Sequence record: NC_052656.1
Reading direction: 5' to 3' (one strand)
DNA: 64,000 nt
From: Escherichia phage anhysbys
Within the stretch, counting starts at the first letter, position 1, and each line of letters begins with the position of its first letter. Below, piece after piece: positions 10,591 through 60,000 of the stretch. The notes below the pieces were generated by a model. That model searched no databases and was not told the DNA's origin. It saw only the letters and a program-made list of their open reading frames with translations. Made by a program: the position numbers and the translations under genes.

Positions 10591-10614
10591 TAAAAAAGGG
10601 AGCAATAAGCTCCC
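10591..10614 (-). terminator. intrinsic terminator
   Basis: minus-strand GGGAGC-TTATT-GCTCCC hairpin followed by TTTTTTATT. Confidence 0.65.
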
Positions 10615-10620
10615 TGATTA

Positions 10621-11580
10621 TTAGATTCCAATAATAGTTGCTGCTCGTTTATCTTTGGATCTGGTGTTTGCTCTACTACGTGACAAACCTCCACAAGATT
10701 CACAACGAATGATATCGAAAGAACTTACCGCAGTGTGGTATTGCTTACCAGTAACAACGTGAACATGATCACTGCCGCAACGAGAACAACGGACTTTCTC
10801 ATCTGGGTAATAAGCGGATAAGTTAGGATGCTGTGGAATCCACGGAAGGATTTTCATATACAAATCACGAAGTGAAACAACATCACCATCATTGTAAATC
10901 TGCATACGTTCAAAAGCATCACGATCACCTTCACAACATGCTTTCCATAAAGGGAACCCCTCGTTATCCAGTTTTTCACTTTCTGTTTCAAAATACGCTC
11001 CCATCTCTTTAAGAGAATTGGAAGGAAGTGCAAACTGTTTCTTAGCTGCCTTCAAGGTATCAACAACTACATAGTTAGAAGGTGGAGCCATATCATGATA
11101 TGCGAAGCGTTGGTTAATGTATGCACGGTCAAACTTGTACCCATTGTGAGCCACAACAACATCAGCTTCATTCAGAAGATTCCAAAGATCTTGGCAAAGT
11201 TCCCAATCATCTGTATGATCGATATCGAAAAGAGGATAAGAAGATAAATTCTTACCTTCTACTTCACCTGTATACAAATCAGCAGAAGAGTAAGATAACA
11301 AATAACCCCTACGAATTACCTGGTCTGGAGAAATGAAGGCTTTGAATCGACGGAAAGTATATGCAATCTCTGGTGCAGTTTCAACATCAATAATTTTAAT
11401 AACTGGTTGTTTCTTTTTAACTGGCTCTTGTTTACTTGCACCGAAACGTGCAAGAAAATCATTTACTGTGCTTTTTCTTGTTGGACTACCTAAAACAATT
11501 GCTGCAATATTGCGAGAAGACATACCCTCTGCACTCATACTAAGGATATCTGCTTTCTGCTCTTCTGTTAATCTGCTCAC
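10621..11580 (-). CDS. DEDD-type 3'-5' exonuclease with N-terminal HTH and C-terminal zinc ribbon
   Basis: IIDVETAPE (Exo I DxE), VVVAHNGYKFDRAYI (Exo II), YNDGDVVSLRDLY (Exo III); CSRCGS...CESCGG zinc ribbon. Confidence 0.5.
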   Translation of the reverse strand: MSRLTEEQKADILSMSAEGMSSRNIAAIVLGSPTRKSTVNDFLARFGASKQEPVKKKQPVIKIIDVETAPEIAYTFRRFKAFISPDQVIRRGYLLSYSSADLYTGEVEGKNLSSYPLFDIDHTDDWELCQDLWNLLNEADVVVAHNGYKFDRAYINQRFAYHDMAPPSNYVVVDTLKAAKKQFALPSNSLKEMGAYFETESEKLDNEGFPLWKACCEGDRDAFERMQIYNDGDVVSLRDLYMKILPWIPQHPNLSAYYPDEKVRCSRCGSDHVHVVTGKQYHTAVSSFDIIRCESCGGLSRSRANTRSKDKRAATIIGI

Positions 11581-12695
11581 TCTGCCTCCTGTTGTGAGAT
11601 GTATGACTGAAGCATACTCTCAAATGTTGTATCGTCATTATCCCAGCGTTTCATGTATACCAACTGGAAAATTGTTTCTATCCATTCATCTGTTGTCATA
11701 TGGACTTCTTCTCCATCCCAAGAAGTAAAATTAACGCCATCTGGGAACCACGAGTAGTAAGTATCTTTAACTGTTTGGAAAAGTTCTGCTTGAGTTTTAC
11801 AAGCTGAAAGAAGATTAAAACAAGTAATATCTCCGAACTTAATATCAAAATCTTGATAAGGTCGGATACTATCTGTTTTATCTCCCATTAGCATCTGATA
11901 GGCTAACCAATAACTTCCCCAACCTTTAACTTCTTTCTTTTTACCTTTATCTACGATCCATATGTCGCCAATAGACTCGTCAATAAGAATTATATCTGGA
12001 TTTTTAAATACTCCATCCTCTTTGTAGAAATTAAAAAGGATACTAGGAGTATGTAAACTATCTTTATCTATAGACACTACGATATAAGAAAATTTACCCG
12101 TCCTTTTATAATCTTTATAACCTTGGAAACCATACTTCTCTAACTCATCGTCAGCCTCTATTACAGTAACAACATCACCATTGTGGAACTCCACAAGATA
12201 ATCTTTGGTTTCTGAAAGCTGAAGTGGTTTGATATCTAATCGTTCAGATTTATATTCTACAGGCATTTTGAAGGCGTGTCTGAAAGTTTTTCCTACGCCA
12301 ATAACTCCGCAATATTTTTCTAAACGTAGATGTTTTAGAATACCTAAGACTTTTGTTTTAGCTGCTTGGAAGGTGTGTCCGATATCTTCTGGCGGGTATT
12401 GCTTATCAATAATTTCGAACTCTTCCTTTGTGAAGGGACGTTTGTTTTTGGAGGCTCTTTCTGCATTTGTATCTCCTAGCCAACCTCCAATTTTAGTCTT
12501 ACTTTTACCCCAAAACTCTGTCTTATTTTTAAATTCCTTTTGAGCACCTGAAGGGATGTGCTTCGCAATGATTGTTCTTTTCTCTAATGCAGACGCTGCT
12601 TGGAAAGCGATCTGATCATAATCAATTGCAGCTATTGTTTCTTCGTTGACATATAAATGAAGATCTTCAGGTTTAATTAAAATATAACCGCTAAT
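11577..12695 (-). CDS. rnh: T4 RNase H-like 5'-3' exonuclease/flap endonuclease; boundaries uncertain, no canonical start codon
   Basis: frame is open from 12707 to 11577; upstream part encodes ETIAAIDYDQIAFQAASAL (cf. T4 RNase H ICLIDFSQIALSTAL), then EADD, SIDKD, GDKTD motifs; first in-frame ATG is 12266 (ORF-track start), far too late; candidate AUU start at 12695 after GGGGG. Confidence 0.55.
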   Translation of the reverse strand: MSGYILIKPEDLHLYVNEETIAAIDYDQIAFQAASALEKRTIIAKHIPSGAQKEFKNKTEFWGKSKTKIGGWLGDTNAERASKNKRPFTKEEFEIIDKQYPPEDIGHTFQAAKTKVLGILKHLRLEKYCGVIGVGKTFRHAFKMPVEYKSERLDIKPLQLSETKDYLVEFHNGDVVTVIEADDELEKYGFQGYKDYKRTGKFSYIVVSIDKDSLHTPSILFNFYKEDGVFKNPDIILIDESIGDIWIVDKGKKKEVKGWGSYWLAYQMLMGDKTDSIRPYQDFDIKFGDITCFNLLSACKTQAELFQTVKDTYYSWFPDGVNFTSWDGEEVHMTTDEWIETIFQLVYMKRWDNDDTTFESMLQSYISQQEAE

Positions 12696-12707
12696 ATTTC
12701 CCCCTAA

Positions 12708-12917
12708 TTATTCATCGTCATCCTCTGTTGAGAATGTTTTAGTATACGGACATTGACGACTTTTCGGGATTGCTATAACTTCATCTTGGTTAGCGTTAGA
12801 ATAGTAGCAATATTTTGTGTTGCCATTAACTTCAGAATCAGACAAGATTAAAGTAATTTGACCTGCTGCTACTGTGAAACTAAAAGCTAAAAGAACGACT
12901 GTCAGAATCTTTTTCAT
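12708..12917 (-). CDS. small secreted protein (signal peptide, two Cys)
   Basis: MKKILTVVLLAFSFTVAAG signal-peptide-like N-terminus; AGGAGG RBS. Confidence 0.45.
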   Translation of the reverse strand: MKKILTVVLLAFSFTVAAGQITLILSDSEVNGNTKYCYYSNANQDEVIAIPKSRQCPYTKTFSTEDDDE

Positions 12918-12927
12918 AACGCCTCCT

Positions 12928-12956
12928 AAAAAGCCTACCTCATTAAGTAGGTAGGC
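12928..12956 (-). terminator. hairpin terminator/attenuator
   Basis: minus-strand GCCTACCT...AGGTAGGC hairpin followed by TTTTT, then AGGAGG RBS. Confidence 0.45.
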
Positions 12957-12989
12957 ATAATATCATAACTAATCCCGCAAGTCAAGAAC

Positions 12990-24477: not shown

Positions 24478-24749
24478 CCAACACAACATTAAGGGCACTG
24501 TGATTGATCGTCGTATCCTGTGCACAAGGTCTGTTCGAAAGACAGTGTTCTTAGTATTGTGTTGATCACACAAAGAGTCACCTGAAACTTGACCGGAGTA
24601 GGGTTGGATGGGGCAAAAGAAGAAGCGGCTCTCCCATCGACAGCAACGAAGAATAATATTTGACTTTGGTTTTGTATTATTTTAAGTTAGCTTACCGAAC
24701 GTAGGGCTAGTCACCCAATGGGATACTCGTCACTGTCCCACTCAATAAA

Positions 24750-24783
24750 ACTATTGACAACCAATAGTAAAATGTAGTATAGT
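24750..24783 (+). promoter_or_regulatory. promoter with conserved ACTATTGACAA -35 element
   Basis: TTGACA at 24754-24759, TATAGT 18 nt downstream; precedes tRNA-Gly. Confidence 0.55.
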
Positions 24784-24794
24784 AAAGATGTAGG

Positions 24795-24865
24795 GCGTTC
24801 TTGGTGTAGCGGTAGCATTCCGTCCTTCCAAGTCGGCGGCACGAGTTCGATCCTCGTAGAACGCT
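24795..24865 (+). tRNA. tRNA-Gly (anticodon TCC)
   Basis: acceptor GCGTTCT/AGAACGC, anticodon loop CTTCCAA, discriminator T, T-arm ACGAG-TTCGATC-CTCGT, CCA. Confidence 0.75.
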
Positions 24866-24966
24866 CCAAATTATTTAATAAAGGGTTGCCAGAAAACTTT
24901 CTCTTTTACTCATGGTTTTCTCCTTCTCTCACACCTCTTCTGGTTGCCCTTCATTAAATGATTTAT

Positions 24967-25039
24967 TGGTTTGTAGTGTAGTCCGGTAGCACACGACACT
25001 TTGACTGTCGTAGGTTTGGTTCAAATCCAGACAGACCAG
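24967..25039 (+). tRNA. tRNA-Gln (anticodon TTG)
   Basis: acceptor TGGTTTG/CAGACCA, anticodon arm CGACA-CTTTGAC-TGTCG, T-loop TTCAAAT, discriminator G, CCA. Confidence 0.8.
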
Positions 25040-25047
25040 CCATATAA

Positions 25048-25121
25048 CGGAATTTAGCTCAGTTTGGTAGAGCATACGCTTTGGGAGCGTAGGGTCGCAG
25101 GTTCGAATCCTGCAATTCCGA
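25048..25121 (+). tRNA. tRNA-Pro (anticodon TGG)
   Basis: acceptor CGGAATT/AATTCCG, D-arm GCTCAGTTTGGTAGAGC, anticodon loop TTTGGGA, T-arm GCAGG-TTCGAAT-CCTGC, CCA. Confidence 0.85.
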
Positions 25122-25130
25122 CCAATCAAA

Positions 25131-25201
25131 TGTTTCGTAGTTCAATGGTAGAACCCACGACTGATAATCGTGAGACACAAGTTCGATTCTTGTCGAAACA
25201 A
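25131..25201 (+). tRNA. tRNA-Ile (anticodon GAT)
   Basis: acceptor TGTTTCG/CGAAACA, anticodon arm CACGA-CTGATAA-TCGTG, T-arm ACAAG-TTCGATT-CTTGT, CCA. Confidence 0.8.
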
Positions 25202-25206
25202 CCAGT

Positions 25207-25276
25207 TTCCCGTTAGACTTACAGGATAAGAGTTCCACAACTTATTGTGATGCTGGTTCGAATCCAGCACGGGATA
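25207..25276 (+). ncRNA. tRNA-like element with 4-nt anticodon-position loop (pseudo-tRNA or structured RNA)
   Basis: perfect T-arm GCTGG-TTCGAAT-CCAGC and 6/7 acceptor pairing, but anticodon-position hairpin is CACAA-CTTA-TTGTG (tetraloop); no encoded CCA. Confidence 0.25.
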
Positions 25277-25282
25277 CATAAT

Positions 25283-25358
25283 AGCGGGATAGAGGAGTCT
25301 GGTCGTCCTCGCCAGTTTCATATGCTGGAGATCATCGGTTCAAATCCGATTCCCGCCT
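25283..25358 (+). tRNA. tRNA-Met (anticodon CAT), second copy; could be initiator or Ile2 type
   Basis: acceptor AGCGGGA/TCCCGCC with A1-C72 mismatch, D-arm GAGG...CCTC, anticodon loop TTCATAT, T-arm ATCGG-TTCAAAT-CCGAT, CCA. Confidence 0.7.
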
Positions 25359-25476
25359 CCAAATATCGCTTGCCAGCGGTATCTTTGAAGACCTTGCCTG
25401 GTTCCTTCTAAGATGGAGGGGTGCGACTCCTTAACGCACAATTATAATAAAGCATTTCAAATTAACAGTATTTATT

Positions 25477-32730: not shown

Positions 32731-33732
32731 ATGCCAGCAGTAATTTTAGATCAGGTTGTAGATTTCAGCCCTATGATCGAACTTCAGGATTCCCCTGATA
32801 CACTGATTGCCAGCCTGAATCTGTTCAGTGTTGACTATCATTCAACTACCGCTATTGAAATCGGTAAAGAAAAAGCTGAAGATGCTCTGATCTCCGCTCG
32901 TGAGCGTGGTGGTGAGCGTAACTTCCTGAGCATGAAAAATCCAGAACTGAAAGCGTTCCGCATTCCGTTCTTCCCTCTGGATAAAAACATCAAAGCTCAA
33001 GATATTCAATCTTTCCGTAGCTTTGCAATGGCAGGAATCAATGACTCTCTGCGCACAGACGCTGAAGTTGTTAACCGCTATATGTCCCAGATTCTGCGTG
33101 ACGTAGCAAAAACCAAAGAGAAAATCTTTGCAGAAGCAGTTATGGGTCGTGCCTATAACGGCGTAGGTGGTGCAGCTAACTCTGCATACAACTGGTATAC
33201 AGAATGGGGTGCTACCCAGAAATCTGTTGCTGTAGACTTTGCTTCTACCACTGTTTCTCCAGCAGCCACTATCGAGAAAGAAGCTCGTGCTTACATCATC
33301 GATACTAAACAAGATGGCTCTACCGCTACTCGTATCGTAGCTCTGTGTTCTCGTGAATTTTTCGCATCTCTGGTTAACTCTCCATTTGTTCGCCAGGCAT
33401 ATCAGTATTTCCAGGGAACTCCTAACCTTCTGCGTGATCGCCTTAGCGGTAACATGGATGTTCAGGTGTTCGAATGGAACGGTGTAACTTACATTGAAGA
33501 TATCCACGGTAACATCCCTGCTGGTGAAGCATATGTTCTGCCTATGGGTATCGAAGGTATGTTCCAGGCGCACTACGCTCCTGCGGATACTCCAGAACTG
33601 GCTAACACCCAGGCTCGTGAACTGTATACCTTCATGATCAGCCAGCACCGCACTATTCAGCTTCAGTCTGAATTCTCGCTGCTCGCAGTTAACACCCGTC
33701 CAGAACTGGTAGTTAAACTGACTACGGCTTAA
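32731..33732 (+). CDS. major capsid protein
   Basis: 333 aa; strongly host-optimal codon usage (CTG/CGT/GGT); followed by strong terminator; lambda-like order portal-protease-scaffold-decoration-capsid. Confidence 0.7.
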   Translation: MPAVILDQVVDFSPMIELQDSPDTLIASLNLFSVDYHSTTAIEIGKEKAEDALISARERGGERNFLSMKNPELKAFRIPFFPLDKNIKAQDIQSFRSFAMAGINDSLRTDAEVVNRYMSQILRDVAKTKEKIFAEAVMGRAYNGVGGAANSAYNWYTEWGATQKSVAVDFASTTVSPAATIEKEARAYIIDTKQDGSTATRIVALCSREFFASLVNSPFVRQAYQYFQGTPNLLRDRLSGNMDVQVFEWNGVTYIEDIHGNIPAGEAYVLPMGIEGMFQAHYAPADTPELANTQARELYTFMISQHRTIQLQSEFSLLAVNTRPELVVKLTTA

Positions 33733-33751
33733 TAGAACTCTGTTAAGATTA

Positions 33752-33786
33752 GAGGCTCGTCCGTGATGGGCGAGCCTTTTCTGTTT
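33752..33786 (+). terminator. intrinsic terminator after major capsid gene
   Basis: hairpin AGGCTCG...CGAGCCT followed by TTTTCTGTTT. Confidence 0.65.
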
Positions 33787-33816
33787 ACAATAAGAGTTTA
33801 CAACGAGGAGATTGAT

Positions 33817-34161
33817 ATGTCAAACCCAGAATTGAAACGTTACTTTAGTTATCACGAAATGATTCGTGATTTCGAATCGCTTTCACCACTGATCGATGCT
33901 GATAAAACATTAGTATCTGCGCCACCAATGTCTTTCTATCTGAAAGATGGTCGTGTTGCATTAGGTGGAAACTTCATTCACTTCCTCACGCGTTTGAGAG
34001 AAGAAACAGGTATTCTTGTGCATCCTTTTGCAAGTGAAGAACACATGGGTTACTATCTTGTAAGTTACGAAGATTATGCACCTGTAAAAATCAAAGAAGA
34101 AGTTTTAAAAGTAGAAGCGGTAGACACTCCAGCTAAAAAACGTTCCCTTCGTAAAAAATAA
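33817..34161 (+). CDS. head-tail joining protein (putative)
   Basis: start moved to ATG 33817 (GAGGAG RBS) because the ORF-track start overlaps the terminator. Confidence 0.4.
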   Translation: MSNPELKRYFSYHEMIRDFESLSPLIDADKTLVSAPPMSFYLKDGRVALGGNFIHFLTRLREETGILVHPFASEEHMGYYLVSYEDYAPVKIKEEVLKVEAVDTPAKKRSLRKK

Positions 34162-57089: not shown

Positions 57090-60000
57090 ATGGCAACATT
57101 CCCAACATATCCAGCAACGTCTCTTGAACAGGGCGTAGATCTGGTTATTTTCTCGTCTAACCAACTCCATGATGTTATTAATGGAAGTGCTACAGAGAGT
57201 ATTGAAACAGAATCAGGGTTGATACCAACCCTTAGAAAAGCCCTTGTTGACAACTTCTTTTTTAAGAGTCCCTTGGATTGGGCGCAAGGCACGAATGAAA
57301 CAGTTTTTAACCAACTTCGCTATTTCCAGAATGGAGTGTTGAGTGGTTATTACTATGCGCCTAATGCTACACTGGTAAACCCTATCCCTATGCAAGGTAC
57401 TCCAGTAGGGGATAATAACTGGGTATTGTGGGGACTGAAGACAGAACAATTAGCAACAGAAGTCACCCCTTGGGTATATTCTGGTGCAACTGGTTATGAA
57501 ACAGTAATCAGCCCTCCCTACATCTTTGATAGTGCTATTGTTACGATCAATGGTGTTATTCAGGTTCTGGGAGAAGCTTTCCGCATAGAAGATAGTAAAA
57601 TCATCTTATCTGAACCTTTGGGACATGATCCTGCAACAGGACTACCAAACAAGCTTTTTGCTTATATTGGTAAAATCGTAGCTTCCGCAGATACAGATCC
57701 TAACCTAGAGAACCGTCTTGTCAGTTTAGAAACAAAAACCGAAGAACTGACAGAAAGTATGGATAAAGTTCCGCTGCAAACCATTGCTCGTAAGTATGGT
57801 TTGTTAGACGATGAGGTAGCTTATGCTACAGTAGGACAGTCTTTAACAGGTATTAAAGCTCTGTATGATCCGGTAGCACAGTCTTCCTACACATTACCTC
57901 CTAGCATCACAGGAACTTTAACATCCTTATCTGTTTCTGGAGTAATGACTTATTCTGGAGGATCTGTAGACCTTTCTGCACTGGCTGTTGAGCGTGGACA
58001 GTTTGTTCATTTGCCTACAAGCTTTGGTAATAACGTAACTCTGACAGCTAAAAATCAGACGATTGGACGTGGTGCTGGTCGTTATCGTTGGGCTGGAAGT
58101 TTACCAAAAAGCATTTTGGCCTCTGATACATTGGAGACAAGCGGTGGATTAGGTCCAAATGCATGGGTTCTGACCAATACAGAAGGACTGTTAACTCCTC
58201 GTGGTGGAACATACAACGATTTATTCGATGTTGTCTACTTGTCAGAATTTGCTAACAACACAACAACATATACCACACCAGAAGCAGCTTTCCAAGCGGC
58301 ACTGTTAGCAGCAAAAGCTTCGAAAAGCAAGATTCTCGATGCTTACGGTTGCGATATGACTTTCACGACAAGCTCTTTTGATATTCAAGGTATCACTTTG
58401 CGTGGGGGTGTGTTCCGTGGTCAACGCGACTATCGTGTGCAAAATGCTACAGTAGAAGGCACAACTTTCCGTAACTCTCGTGTTATGTATTGGGGTGGTG
58501 CTGTGCGCATGTTCGATTGTTTGTGGGACGGTGCTCCTCGCGCAGGTCAAGTTGGTAGCTTGGTATTCCAAGGCAACCCAATATCAGGTACTTTTGAAAT
58601 TGATAACTGTACTTTTAAAAACGGGTTGTATGGCATCCTTCAACAAGGAACAGGAGAACCAGTAACACGTGGTGTCTTCCGTAACCTTACCTTCATGGAC
58701 ATGCAAGGTGATGCAATAGAACTGAACGTCATCAATAAACATTATGACGATGGTTGTGTGATTGAGAATATTTACCTGTCTAATATCGATGGAACTAATG
58801 CTCCTATTCCTCTGTCGAACTGGGGTATCGGTATCGGTGTAGCTGGTAAAGGACCATATGGTTACGGAATCCCTGATGATCAATATTGTAAGAATATTAC
58901 AATTCGTAACGTTTTTGCAAAACGTTGCCGTCAAATTGTCCACGTAGAAGTTGGTCGTAATATTTCTATCGAAAACATTCATGGCGATCCAGATCAAACC
59001 GTATCTGTTGGGACAGGTTTGGCAACTGGCGCAGTTGTAATGTATGGAAGTAAAGACTTTACGATTGATGGTGTTTATGGAGAGCCTAAAACAGATGGTA
59101 GCACACTTGCAAGTAATATCCGTATGATTTACTTGGAGTGGGGAACTAACGCAGTTCTGGATGAAGAGGGTAATCCGGTAGTTCCGGCACAGGGCAGACC
59201 TTCAAATCCATGCTTTAACTATTCTGTTCGTAACATTCACACCAAAACTGGGCGTGTTTTTGCGGGAGTTTCCGCTGGGCCAGGTTATGAAAACAGAGTT
59301 AGCTTTGAAAATATTCGTTGCGCTGCATTGCAGTTGTTCGGTATAGCTTCTTGGCTTTCAATGTCTAACATCACTTGTAATATCTTCGATTGTGTTGGTC
59401 AACCTGAATCTGGTCCAGGGACATTTTATGATGGATTCTTCCGTAGAGAAAAATCTGTTCTTGAAATGGTTAACGTAAACTGTTACCCAGATGGCAAGAC
59501 GATGGTTACTGGTCGTCCACAGTGGAGCCGTTGCCGTTACTCTGATATTCATCGTGTCAACTGTAATGTTGAAGCTAATATGTATACCAATATCGCAGGT
59601 GGTATTGGAGCTATCGTAGGAACAACGGGCAAAGTTTATTACTTAGAGCCTAATCCTAGTCGAAACATTGATGGAATGCATTTCCCAACAGGGAAAGAGT
59701 TTGACAAAGGTGATATGATAGTCAAGGCGGATAATACGTTCTTCCTTGTGACAACAAGTGGGGCATATATTCCAGATATCCCAGCTTTCGGTATTCGAGC
59801 TACACAGGCAGGAGATACCTTCCTGACACAGAACTTGACTCCTAACGGGACAGCAACAAATGCTTCTTGGTTGTATCATTACCCTCTGTCAGCAGGGACA
59901 CGTATCCGTATTCCTGGTGCTGGTGTAGGTGGAGCAGATTTGGACACAGTTATTACTCGTGCGCCTTATCAAGATAATGATACGTGGACTAACCCAGTTA

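Follow-up and report, generated by a model that had tools for sequence, protein, structure and literature searches.

The locus at positions 11577 to 12707 of a stretch of Escherichia phage anhysbys DNA (sequence record NC_052656.1; 64,000 nucleotides [nt], all of which is referred to below as the window) raises the question of where translation begins in a nuclease gene whose reading frame has no canonical start codon over its upstream part. The frame lies on the minus strand, is bounded by the TAA at 12710-12708, and stays open from 12707 to the TGA at 11579-11577, a length of 376 codons. The phage is a phAPEC8-like coliphage, and the product of the frame is predicted to be a 5'-nuclease of the flap endonuclease (FEN) superfamily. 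The frame contains no ATG, GTG, or TTG until its codon 147, the ATG at 12266, and a listing of open reading frames (ORFs) yields only an ORF of 229 amino acids (aa) for it. Reading along the minus strand, the TAA at 12710-12708 is followed by TTA GGG GGA AAT, the ATT at 12695, AGC GGT TAT, the ATT at 12683, TTA, and the ATT at 12677. The comparative evidence strongly supports initiation of translation at AUU 12695, behind a Shine-Dalgarno (SD) sequence, and we put the probability of this at about 0.8. An initial annotation of the window had reported the frame, the SD sequence, the three ATT codons, and ATG 12266; all of these coordinates were confirmed on the minus strand, as was its statement that no ATG, GTG, or TTG precedes 12266, which leaves a gap of 147 codons.

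The missing canonical start exceeds chance expectation. The comparison set comprised all stop-to-stop frames in the window with a length of 150 codons or more, 49 in total. The distance to the first canonical start was 147 codons in the nuclease frame versus a median of 4 codons in the set, making this frame an extreme outlier, and the runners-up, at 68 and 57 codons, were both antisense shadow frames. Given the 4.9% density of ATG, GTG, and TTG in the long frames of the window, the probability of finding no canonical start in 147 codons is approximately 6e-4. These two frames, at 58584-59201 and 32842-33819 (both minus strand), were rejected as further genes with a noncanonical start because they look like antisense shadows of plus-strand genes; they are Cys rich, have an odd composition, and lack an SD sequence.

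The initial annotation had named an alignment of orthologues as a check on AUU initiation, and this alignment bore the proposal out. The 5' ends of orthologues were gathered from GenBank phages, IMG/VR, and metagenome assemblies and were aligned on the invariant Asp. In 15 distinct lineages (50 to 100% protein identity; those with our own labels carry L numbers), the codon homologous to ATT 12695 was ATT (7 lineages), ATC (4), ATA (3), or CTG (1). This near-cognate codon was located 23 to 24 codons before the invariant Asp in all 15 lineages. An SD sequence (AGGAGG, AGGGGG, or AGGAGA), matching AGGAGG at 5 or 6 of 6 positions, preceded it at a spacing of 4 to 5 nt, likewise in 15/15. In L015/L034, an in-frame TAA is located immediately 5' of the ATC, and therefore no upstream codon can be the start there.

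All loci of 43% identity or less had ATG, GTG, or TTG at about the homologous position. In the closest outgroups, which are Vequintavirinae-like, the canonical start was 21 to 26 codons before the invariant Asp, as in rV5 (AGGAGG-GTCT-TTG-AGT) and Certrevirus (ATG-GGT-TAT). ORF94 of rV5 and its Vequintavirinae counterparts, annotated as a putative exodeoxyribonuclease, are orthologues with 37 to 42% identity over the full length and have the same SD sequence and 4-nt spacer, but their start at roughly this position is a canonical TTG or ATG/GTG. In a neighbor-joining tree, the 15 near-cognate lineages formed one clade, whose sister lineage has TTG. The arrangement of an SD sequence, 4 to 5 nt, and AUU, AUC, AUA, or CUG is inherited throughout this clade, which comprises Phapecoctavirus, Justusliebigvirus, and uncultured relatives.

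Within the phage itself, ATT 12695 is the only credible start on the basis of its SD spacing, the homologous near-cognate codons, and the canonical starts of the outgroups. It was chosen because stops lie just upstream, an SD sequence is present, and the outgroups have canonical starts at that position. The proposal of AUU initiation in the initial annotation therefore stands for ATT 12695. It does not extend to ATT 12683 and ATT 12677, which it had listed as well; these two codons, together with ATA 12635 and ATT 12626, were rejected as starts since they have no SD sequence at a usable spacing. A spacing of 4 nt is the modal value in the window, found in 17 of the 42 genes with an SD match of at least 5/6, and the downstream gene likewise has a 4-nt spacer (AGGAGG-CAGA-GTG). 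The internal ATG at 12266 is probably not a start. When the region from -45 to +48 was folded as RNA in 12 lineages, the z-scores ranged from -1.1 to +1.8 and the lineages had no helix in common; a conserved regulatory RNA structure around the start was rejected.

Several points weigh against this assignment. The 4-nt spacer, typical for this phage, is short in comparison with the E. coli textbook standard. The set of codons found at the start position could by itself also be compatible with a conserved hydrophobic residue. There were at least five changes at this codon within the clade, none of them to a canonical start, and the probability of this under neutral third-position drift is about 0.1 to 0.2; selection for a weak start is suggested by the pattern, the count of codon changes alone not being significant. 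Finally, L109 to L111 have an in-frame ATG without an SD sequence 8 codons downstream, which could be their real start. The peptide encoded before this ATG (K-I-T/S-x-x-F-K/N-T-I-S) is conserved with L016 and L017.

The 143 residues before Met144, the residue encoded by ATG 12266, contain D25 (59/59 homologues), D27 (58/59), and R139 (59/59). In the structural model, predicted strands of the core sheet (residues 16 to 25 and 127 to 137) precede Met144, and a helix (residues 26 to 36) follows the first of these strands. The sequence AIDYDQIA of the window protein resembles LIDFSQIA in T4 RNase H. Met144 itself is positioned inside a motif, GKTFRHAFK-M-PVEYKSER, and this position is occupied by Met in 8 of the 59 homologues, by Thr in 23, and by Leu in 19. 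When the 142 N-terminal codons were compared with those of seven relatives, the changes were mostly at the third position (e.g., 34/18/64 and 42/29/82 at positions 1/2/3), indicating purifying selection on the N-terminal reading frame. The view of the initial annotation that this part encodes a conserved FEN N terminus is borne out by the invariant D25 and R139 and the third-position bias, and the T4 RNase H N terminus that it quoted was exact. A 229-aa product would be missing one of the metal ligands as well as part of the fold and would probably be nonfunctional.

Searches with the window protein gave no match at the curated Pfam thresholds for the 5'-3' exonuclease or T4 RNase H domains and no match in NCBIfam or in PDB sequence and profile searches. 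PHROG 107 ("exonuclease") matched residues 14 to 371 of the 376-codon frame (E = 1e-55), and each half of the frame matched separately. The 5_3_exonuc_N family (PF02739) was touched by 16 of the 59 homologues, the five strongest scoring 26 to 28 bits versus a gathering score of 34.3. An AlphaFold2 model built with the 59 homologues had a predicted local distance difference test (pLDDT) score of 96.4 and a predicted template modeling (pTM) score of 0.90. It has the FEN fold, with a PIN-like alpha/beta core and a helical DNA-binding region. Besides PHROG 107, only the searches by fold were informative. Known FENs (T5 D15, T4 RNase H, and E. coli ExoIX) can be superposed on around 213 of the 372 residues; their genes have ordinary start codons, unlike the AUU proposed for the nuclease gene of the window.

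The carboxylates D25, E180, D182, D183, D210, D212, D272, and D275 were invariant in 59/59 homologues and would make up the carboxylate cluster for the two metal ions. In an hhalign comparison with T4 RNase H, the YK..R, EADD, DxD, and GDxxD motifs were aligned, with EADD, DKD, and GDxxD falling on T4 E130/D132, D155/D157, and D197/D200. Y148 and K149 (both invariant) and R152 (57/59 homologues) align to YYKKNR of T4 RNase H (T4 Y86-K87...R90). From its motif and secondary structure, we infer that D25 is the counterpart of D19 in T4 RNase H. Our reading of the model and motifs suggests that an insertion of roughly 90 residues (approximately residues 39 to 125) separates beta1/alpha1 from the FRH..YK motif and that the nearly invariant Gly133 may occupy the place of the metal ligand Asp71 of T4. 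The product is thus predicted, by fold and catalytic motifs and not by a curated sequence family, to be a divergent 5'-nuclease of the FEN superfamily. Orthology to T4 RNase H (rnh), including its RNaseH_C domain, does not hold at the level of the sequence. Of the identity given in the initial annotation, RNase H/flap endonuclease, the FEN part is sustained by the fold; Pfam thresholds were not reached, and "RNase H" applies at the level of the fold only.

The features of the locus and the start regions of the relatives are listed in Table 1. The 69-aa ORF upstream of the nuclease gene ends with the TAA at 12710-12708, 12 nt before ATT 12695. In Stephanstirmvirinae it is a conserved ORF, flanked by rdgC and the nuclease gene, and it has no family match. 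The GTG start of the downstream DnaQ-like exonuclease overlaps the nuclease stop (GTGA). A consensus scan suggests that the FEN gene forms a putative three-gene unit with the 69-aa ORF before it and the DnaQ-like exonuclease gene after it; the limits of this unit would be the promoter-like site and hairpin at 12985-12933 and the terminator-like hairpin at 10615-10597. The hairpin at 12933-12956 could be either the terminator of the rdgC unit or a 5' stabilizing stem.

Table 1. Positions of features in the window, and start regions of the nuclease gene in relatives (protein identity in parentheses)
Feature	Position	Strand	Remarks
Full-length coding sequence (CDS), FEN-like 5'-nuclease	11577..12695	-	Proposed ATT start 12695-12693 to TGA stop 11579-11577; 372 aa
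Proposed initiation codon ATT (AUU)	12693..12695	-	4 nt 3' of AGGGGG; near-cognate in 15 lineages; annotated in KX552041.2
Shine-Dalgarno AGGGGGA	12699..12705	-	5/6 match to AGGAGG; 4-nt spacer
Invariant Asp25 codon, motif AIDYDQ, end of strand beta1	12621..12623	-	D in 59/59 homologues
Internal ATG (Met144), start in most database annotations	12264..12266	-	SD match 2/6; within conserved motif GKTFRHAFKMPVEYKSER
Upstream 69-aa ORF, predicted signal peptide, acidic C terminus (..STEDDDE)	12708..12917	-	Signal peptide annotated in phi92 homologue
DnaQ-like 3'-5' exonuclease, annotated "DNA polymerase exonuclease subunit"	10621..11580	-	Pfam RNase_H_2, E = 9.5e-10
Promoter-like site TTGACT-17-TATTAT, TG extended, and hairpin/T-run, upstream of 69-aa ORF	12933..12985	-	Consensus scan only
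Strong hairpin and T-run, GCCTACCT...AGGTAGGC TTTTT	12933-12956	-	Directly between promoter-like site and SD of 69-aa ORF; consensus scan only
Terminator-like hairpin and T-run after DnaQ-like exonuclease gene	10597..10615	-	Consensus scan only
phAPEC8-like (100%)			AGGGGG-AAAT-ATT
phi92-like (77-78%)			AGGAGG-TAAT-ATT
phiWec179-like (83%)			GGGGGA-ATT-ATC
L014, L023 (75-78%)			AGGAGG...-ATC
L015 (75%)			aggaggag-TAA-ATC
L035 group, L041, L113 (64-65%)			ATT
L112 (60%)			ATT
L109 (57%)			ATT
L110, L111 (53-55%)			ATA
L016 (52%)			ATA
L017 (50%)			CTG

Apart from the absent start codon, nothing favors the explanation that this single genome carries a pseudogene or an indel introduced by sequencing or assembly. 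The whole 376-codon frame was 100% protein identical in 63 independently sequenced phage records (tblastn), including phAPEC8, ESCO5, ESCO13, and ZCKP1 of the genus Phapecoctavirus, subfamily Stephanstirmvirinae. The 91 nt around the start were ungapped in all 63 records, of which 51 had ≥99% identity there and 12 had 95 to 99%, and the same start architecture was found in divergent lineages. The indel that the initial annotation had put forward as its alternative is excluded by these ungapped start regions, and the chance that any such defect accounts for the locus is negligible. It is also very improbable that only the 229-aa product from ATG 12266 is made, with the 147 upstream codons as an untranslated remnant. 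Such a product matches the output of the ORF finder and five inspected database records (phAPEC8 RefSeq, iGC_PHA_EC001, EF1-1, Ro121c4YLVW, and ESCO5 v3), but ATG 12266 has no SD sequence and its Met is a minority residue inside a conserved FEN motif. In addition, the upstream part is under protein-level constraint, holds D25, and forms core strands in the model (pLDDT 96), and the outgroups have full-length orthologues that begin at canonical starts. A fusion of the nuclease with the 69-aa ORF, produced by stop codon readthrough or frameshifting, is extremely improbable. The TAA between the two is in frame with the nuclease ORF in the window, and a metagenomic protein of 444 aa (P0005, from L023, Logan contig SRR30397360) looks like such a fusion. 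However, phi92 and phiWec179 have their upstream ORF in the +1 frame, two in-frame stops separate the ORFs in L015, and a signal peptide on a replication nuclease would be senseless. The frame relation and the identity of the upstream gene vary among relatives, which argues against a fusion or readthrough product. P0005 was rejected as a real fusion; the DNA of its locus has a TAG and does not translate to P0005, which is a gene caller artifact in which the TAG was read as sense.

Re-initiation is the one alternative that overlaps with AUU initiation and does not exclude it. It holds that the ATT is used mainly by ribosomes re-initiating after the upstream ORF, the weak codon being simply tolerated, the strong SD sequence being sufficient, and no throttle dependent on initiation factor IF3 having been selected. 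This is possible, though we regard it as doubtful. The upstream stop was 0 to 24 nt before the start in every relative checked and lay beside or inside the SD sequence in every lineage examined, often overlapping it (as TAGGAGG in phi92, L014, L015, L023, and L109). The nuclease gene would also be second in the compact putative three-gene unit, with the GTGA overlap downstream, and experiments in E. coli have made use of re-initiation on noncanonical codons (PMC2268962). On the other hand, adjacency of stop and SD sequence is normal in compact phage genomes, and genes of the window that start with ATG show the same. The identity of the upstream gene varies, a methyltransferase being present in L109. 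Re-initiation is itself sensitive to IF3 (PMC2268962), so that a dependence on IF3 would remain in any case.

Initiation at AUU 12695 is likely to be weak, sensitive to IF3, and possibly coupled. The SD sequence AGGGGG would position the 30S subunit so that the initiator fMet-tRNA reads AUU 12695 in the P site. IF3 proofreading against AUU, AUC, AUA, and CUG would make this initiation weak, at about 1 to 3% of AUG in E. coli reporters, and the output would be sensitive to the IF3 level, the temperature, and the nutritional state (PMC2268962; PMC5499595). Ribosomes terminating at the 69-aa ORF may feed the AUU by translational coupling. A weak start of this kind, dependent on the state of IF3 and the ribosomes in the infected cell, would keep the synthesis of a potentially harmful nuclease low. 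AUA, AUC, AUU, and CUG are the four second-tier initiators in E. coli, with 1 to 2% of the AUG level in one reporter system and 0.02 to 3% in the other (Hecht et al., 10.1101/063800), and the near-cognate codons of the clade are the same four.

Two E. coli genes, infC and pcnB, are the only confirmed cases of AUU starts in this host (10.1101/063800). Like the start proposed for the nuclease gene, that of infC, which encodes IF3, is a conserved AUU behind an SD sequence; IF3 discriminates against it, and the output of infC varies with the IF3 level (PMC2268962; 10.1101/063800). Unlike the AUU of infC, the codon varies among AUU, AUC, AUA, and CUG in the nuclease clade. The initial annotation had taken AUU initiation to imply translational autoregulation as well. 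This does not follow, because feedback in infC exists only since its own product, IF3, is the discriminator, whereas the product in the window is a nuclease; with an AUU start its gene would be IF3 sensitive, and nothing indicates a feedback loop. The pcnB gene, encoding poly(A) polymerase I, specifies a nucleic acid enzyme, possibly harmful in excess, that is held low by AUU (10.1101/063800), as may be the case for the nuclease. It belongs to the host, and the start codons of its orthologues in different phyla switch between AUG, GUG, and UUG, whereas the nuclease gene is a phage gene with putative near-cognate starts clade-wide. Noncanonical AUU starts and FEN nucleases are known kinds, and the clade-wide, phage-borne case is new.

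The annotation of the gene differs between records. In GenBank record KX552041.2 (ESCO13), CDS ESCO13_00118 (AQM50955.1) begins at exactly this ATT and is accompanied by a ribosome-binding site (RBS) feature; it is the only such record among the eight inspected for this clade, the other seven truncating the gene. The record offers the start as an annotation, with neither comparative nor experimental support, and the ESCO13 paper makes no mention of an ATT start (PMC5374246). The orthologues of phi92 (L005; NC_023693.1, gp085) and Antha (L027) are annotated from a GTG inside the gene, at codon 33 of the frame; the phi92 record remarks "No RBS identified; weak Prodigal statistics." The phiWec179 (L004) orthologue is annotated from an internal TTG. 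In all three phages, an SD sequence and an ATT or ATC are located upstream of the annotated start. The metagenomic gene calls for the nuclease were scattered over internal TTG, GTG, and ATG codons. A literature search on phAPEC8, ESCO13, and ATT starts in phages found no description of this start and no proteomic or ribosome-profiling data mapping the N terminus of the nuclease.

If the AUU is used, a conserved phage gene of an essential type, together with its natural AUC, AUA, and CUG variants, would provide a comparative series for near-cognate initiation and IF3 proofreading during infection. Assignments of structure, function, and family that rest on the truncated nuclease proteins would then be wrong. 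Gene finders limited to ATG, GTG, and TTG can systematically misannotate a whole clade, and an SD sequence combined with cross-clade alignment recovers the start.

A more far-reaching interpretation is that the near-cognate start is actively kept by selection across the Stephanstirmvirinae-like clade as a throttle coupling flap endonuclease synthesis to the IF3 and ribosome state of the host cell, perhaps together with an initiator-like tRNA(CAU) of the phage. We consider this unlikely. If it were true, the phage would itself encode a means of regulation through initiation fidelity, which goes beyond a tolerated weak start.

Two tRNA genes of the window were inspected separately. The tRNA(CAU) at 25283-25361 (plus strand) resembles the E. 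coli initiator tRNA and is 74% identical to metY, which is located upstream of rimP-nusA; it matched four places per E. coli genome. It has the A1.C72 mismatch and the A11:U24 pair, and its T-arm is nearly identical. In the anticodon stem (CCAGU/GCUGG), the run of three G:C pairs that bacterial initiators typically have is missing. These three anticodon stem pairs of the initiator tRNA are inspected by IF3 and the P site. The tRNA at 23439-23513 (plus strand), labeled "Met (CAT)," had as its best matches genes annotated as tRNA-Ile in 40 E. coli genomes, with 83 to 84% identity in these best matches. Rather than a Met tRNA, it is probably a tRNA-Ile2 of the lysidine type, which reads AUA, and it is part of a cluster of 10 tRNAs at 23439-25361.

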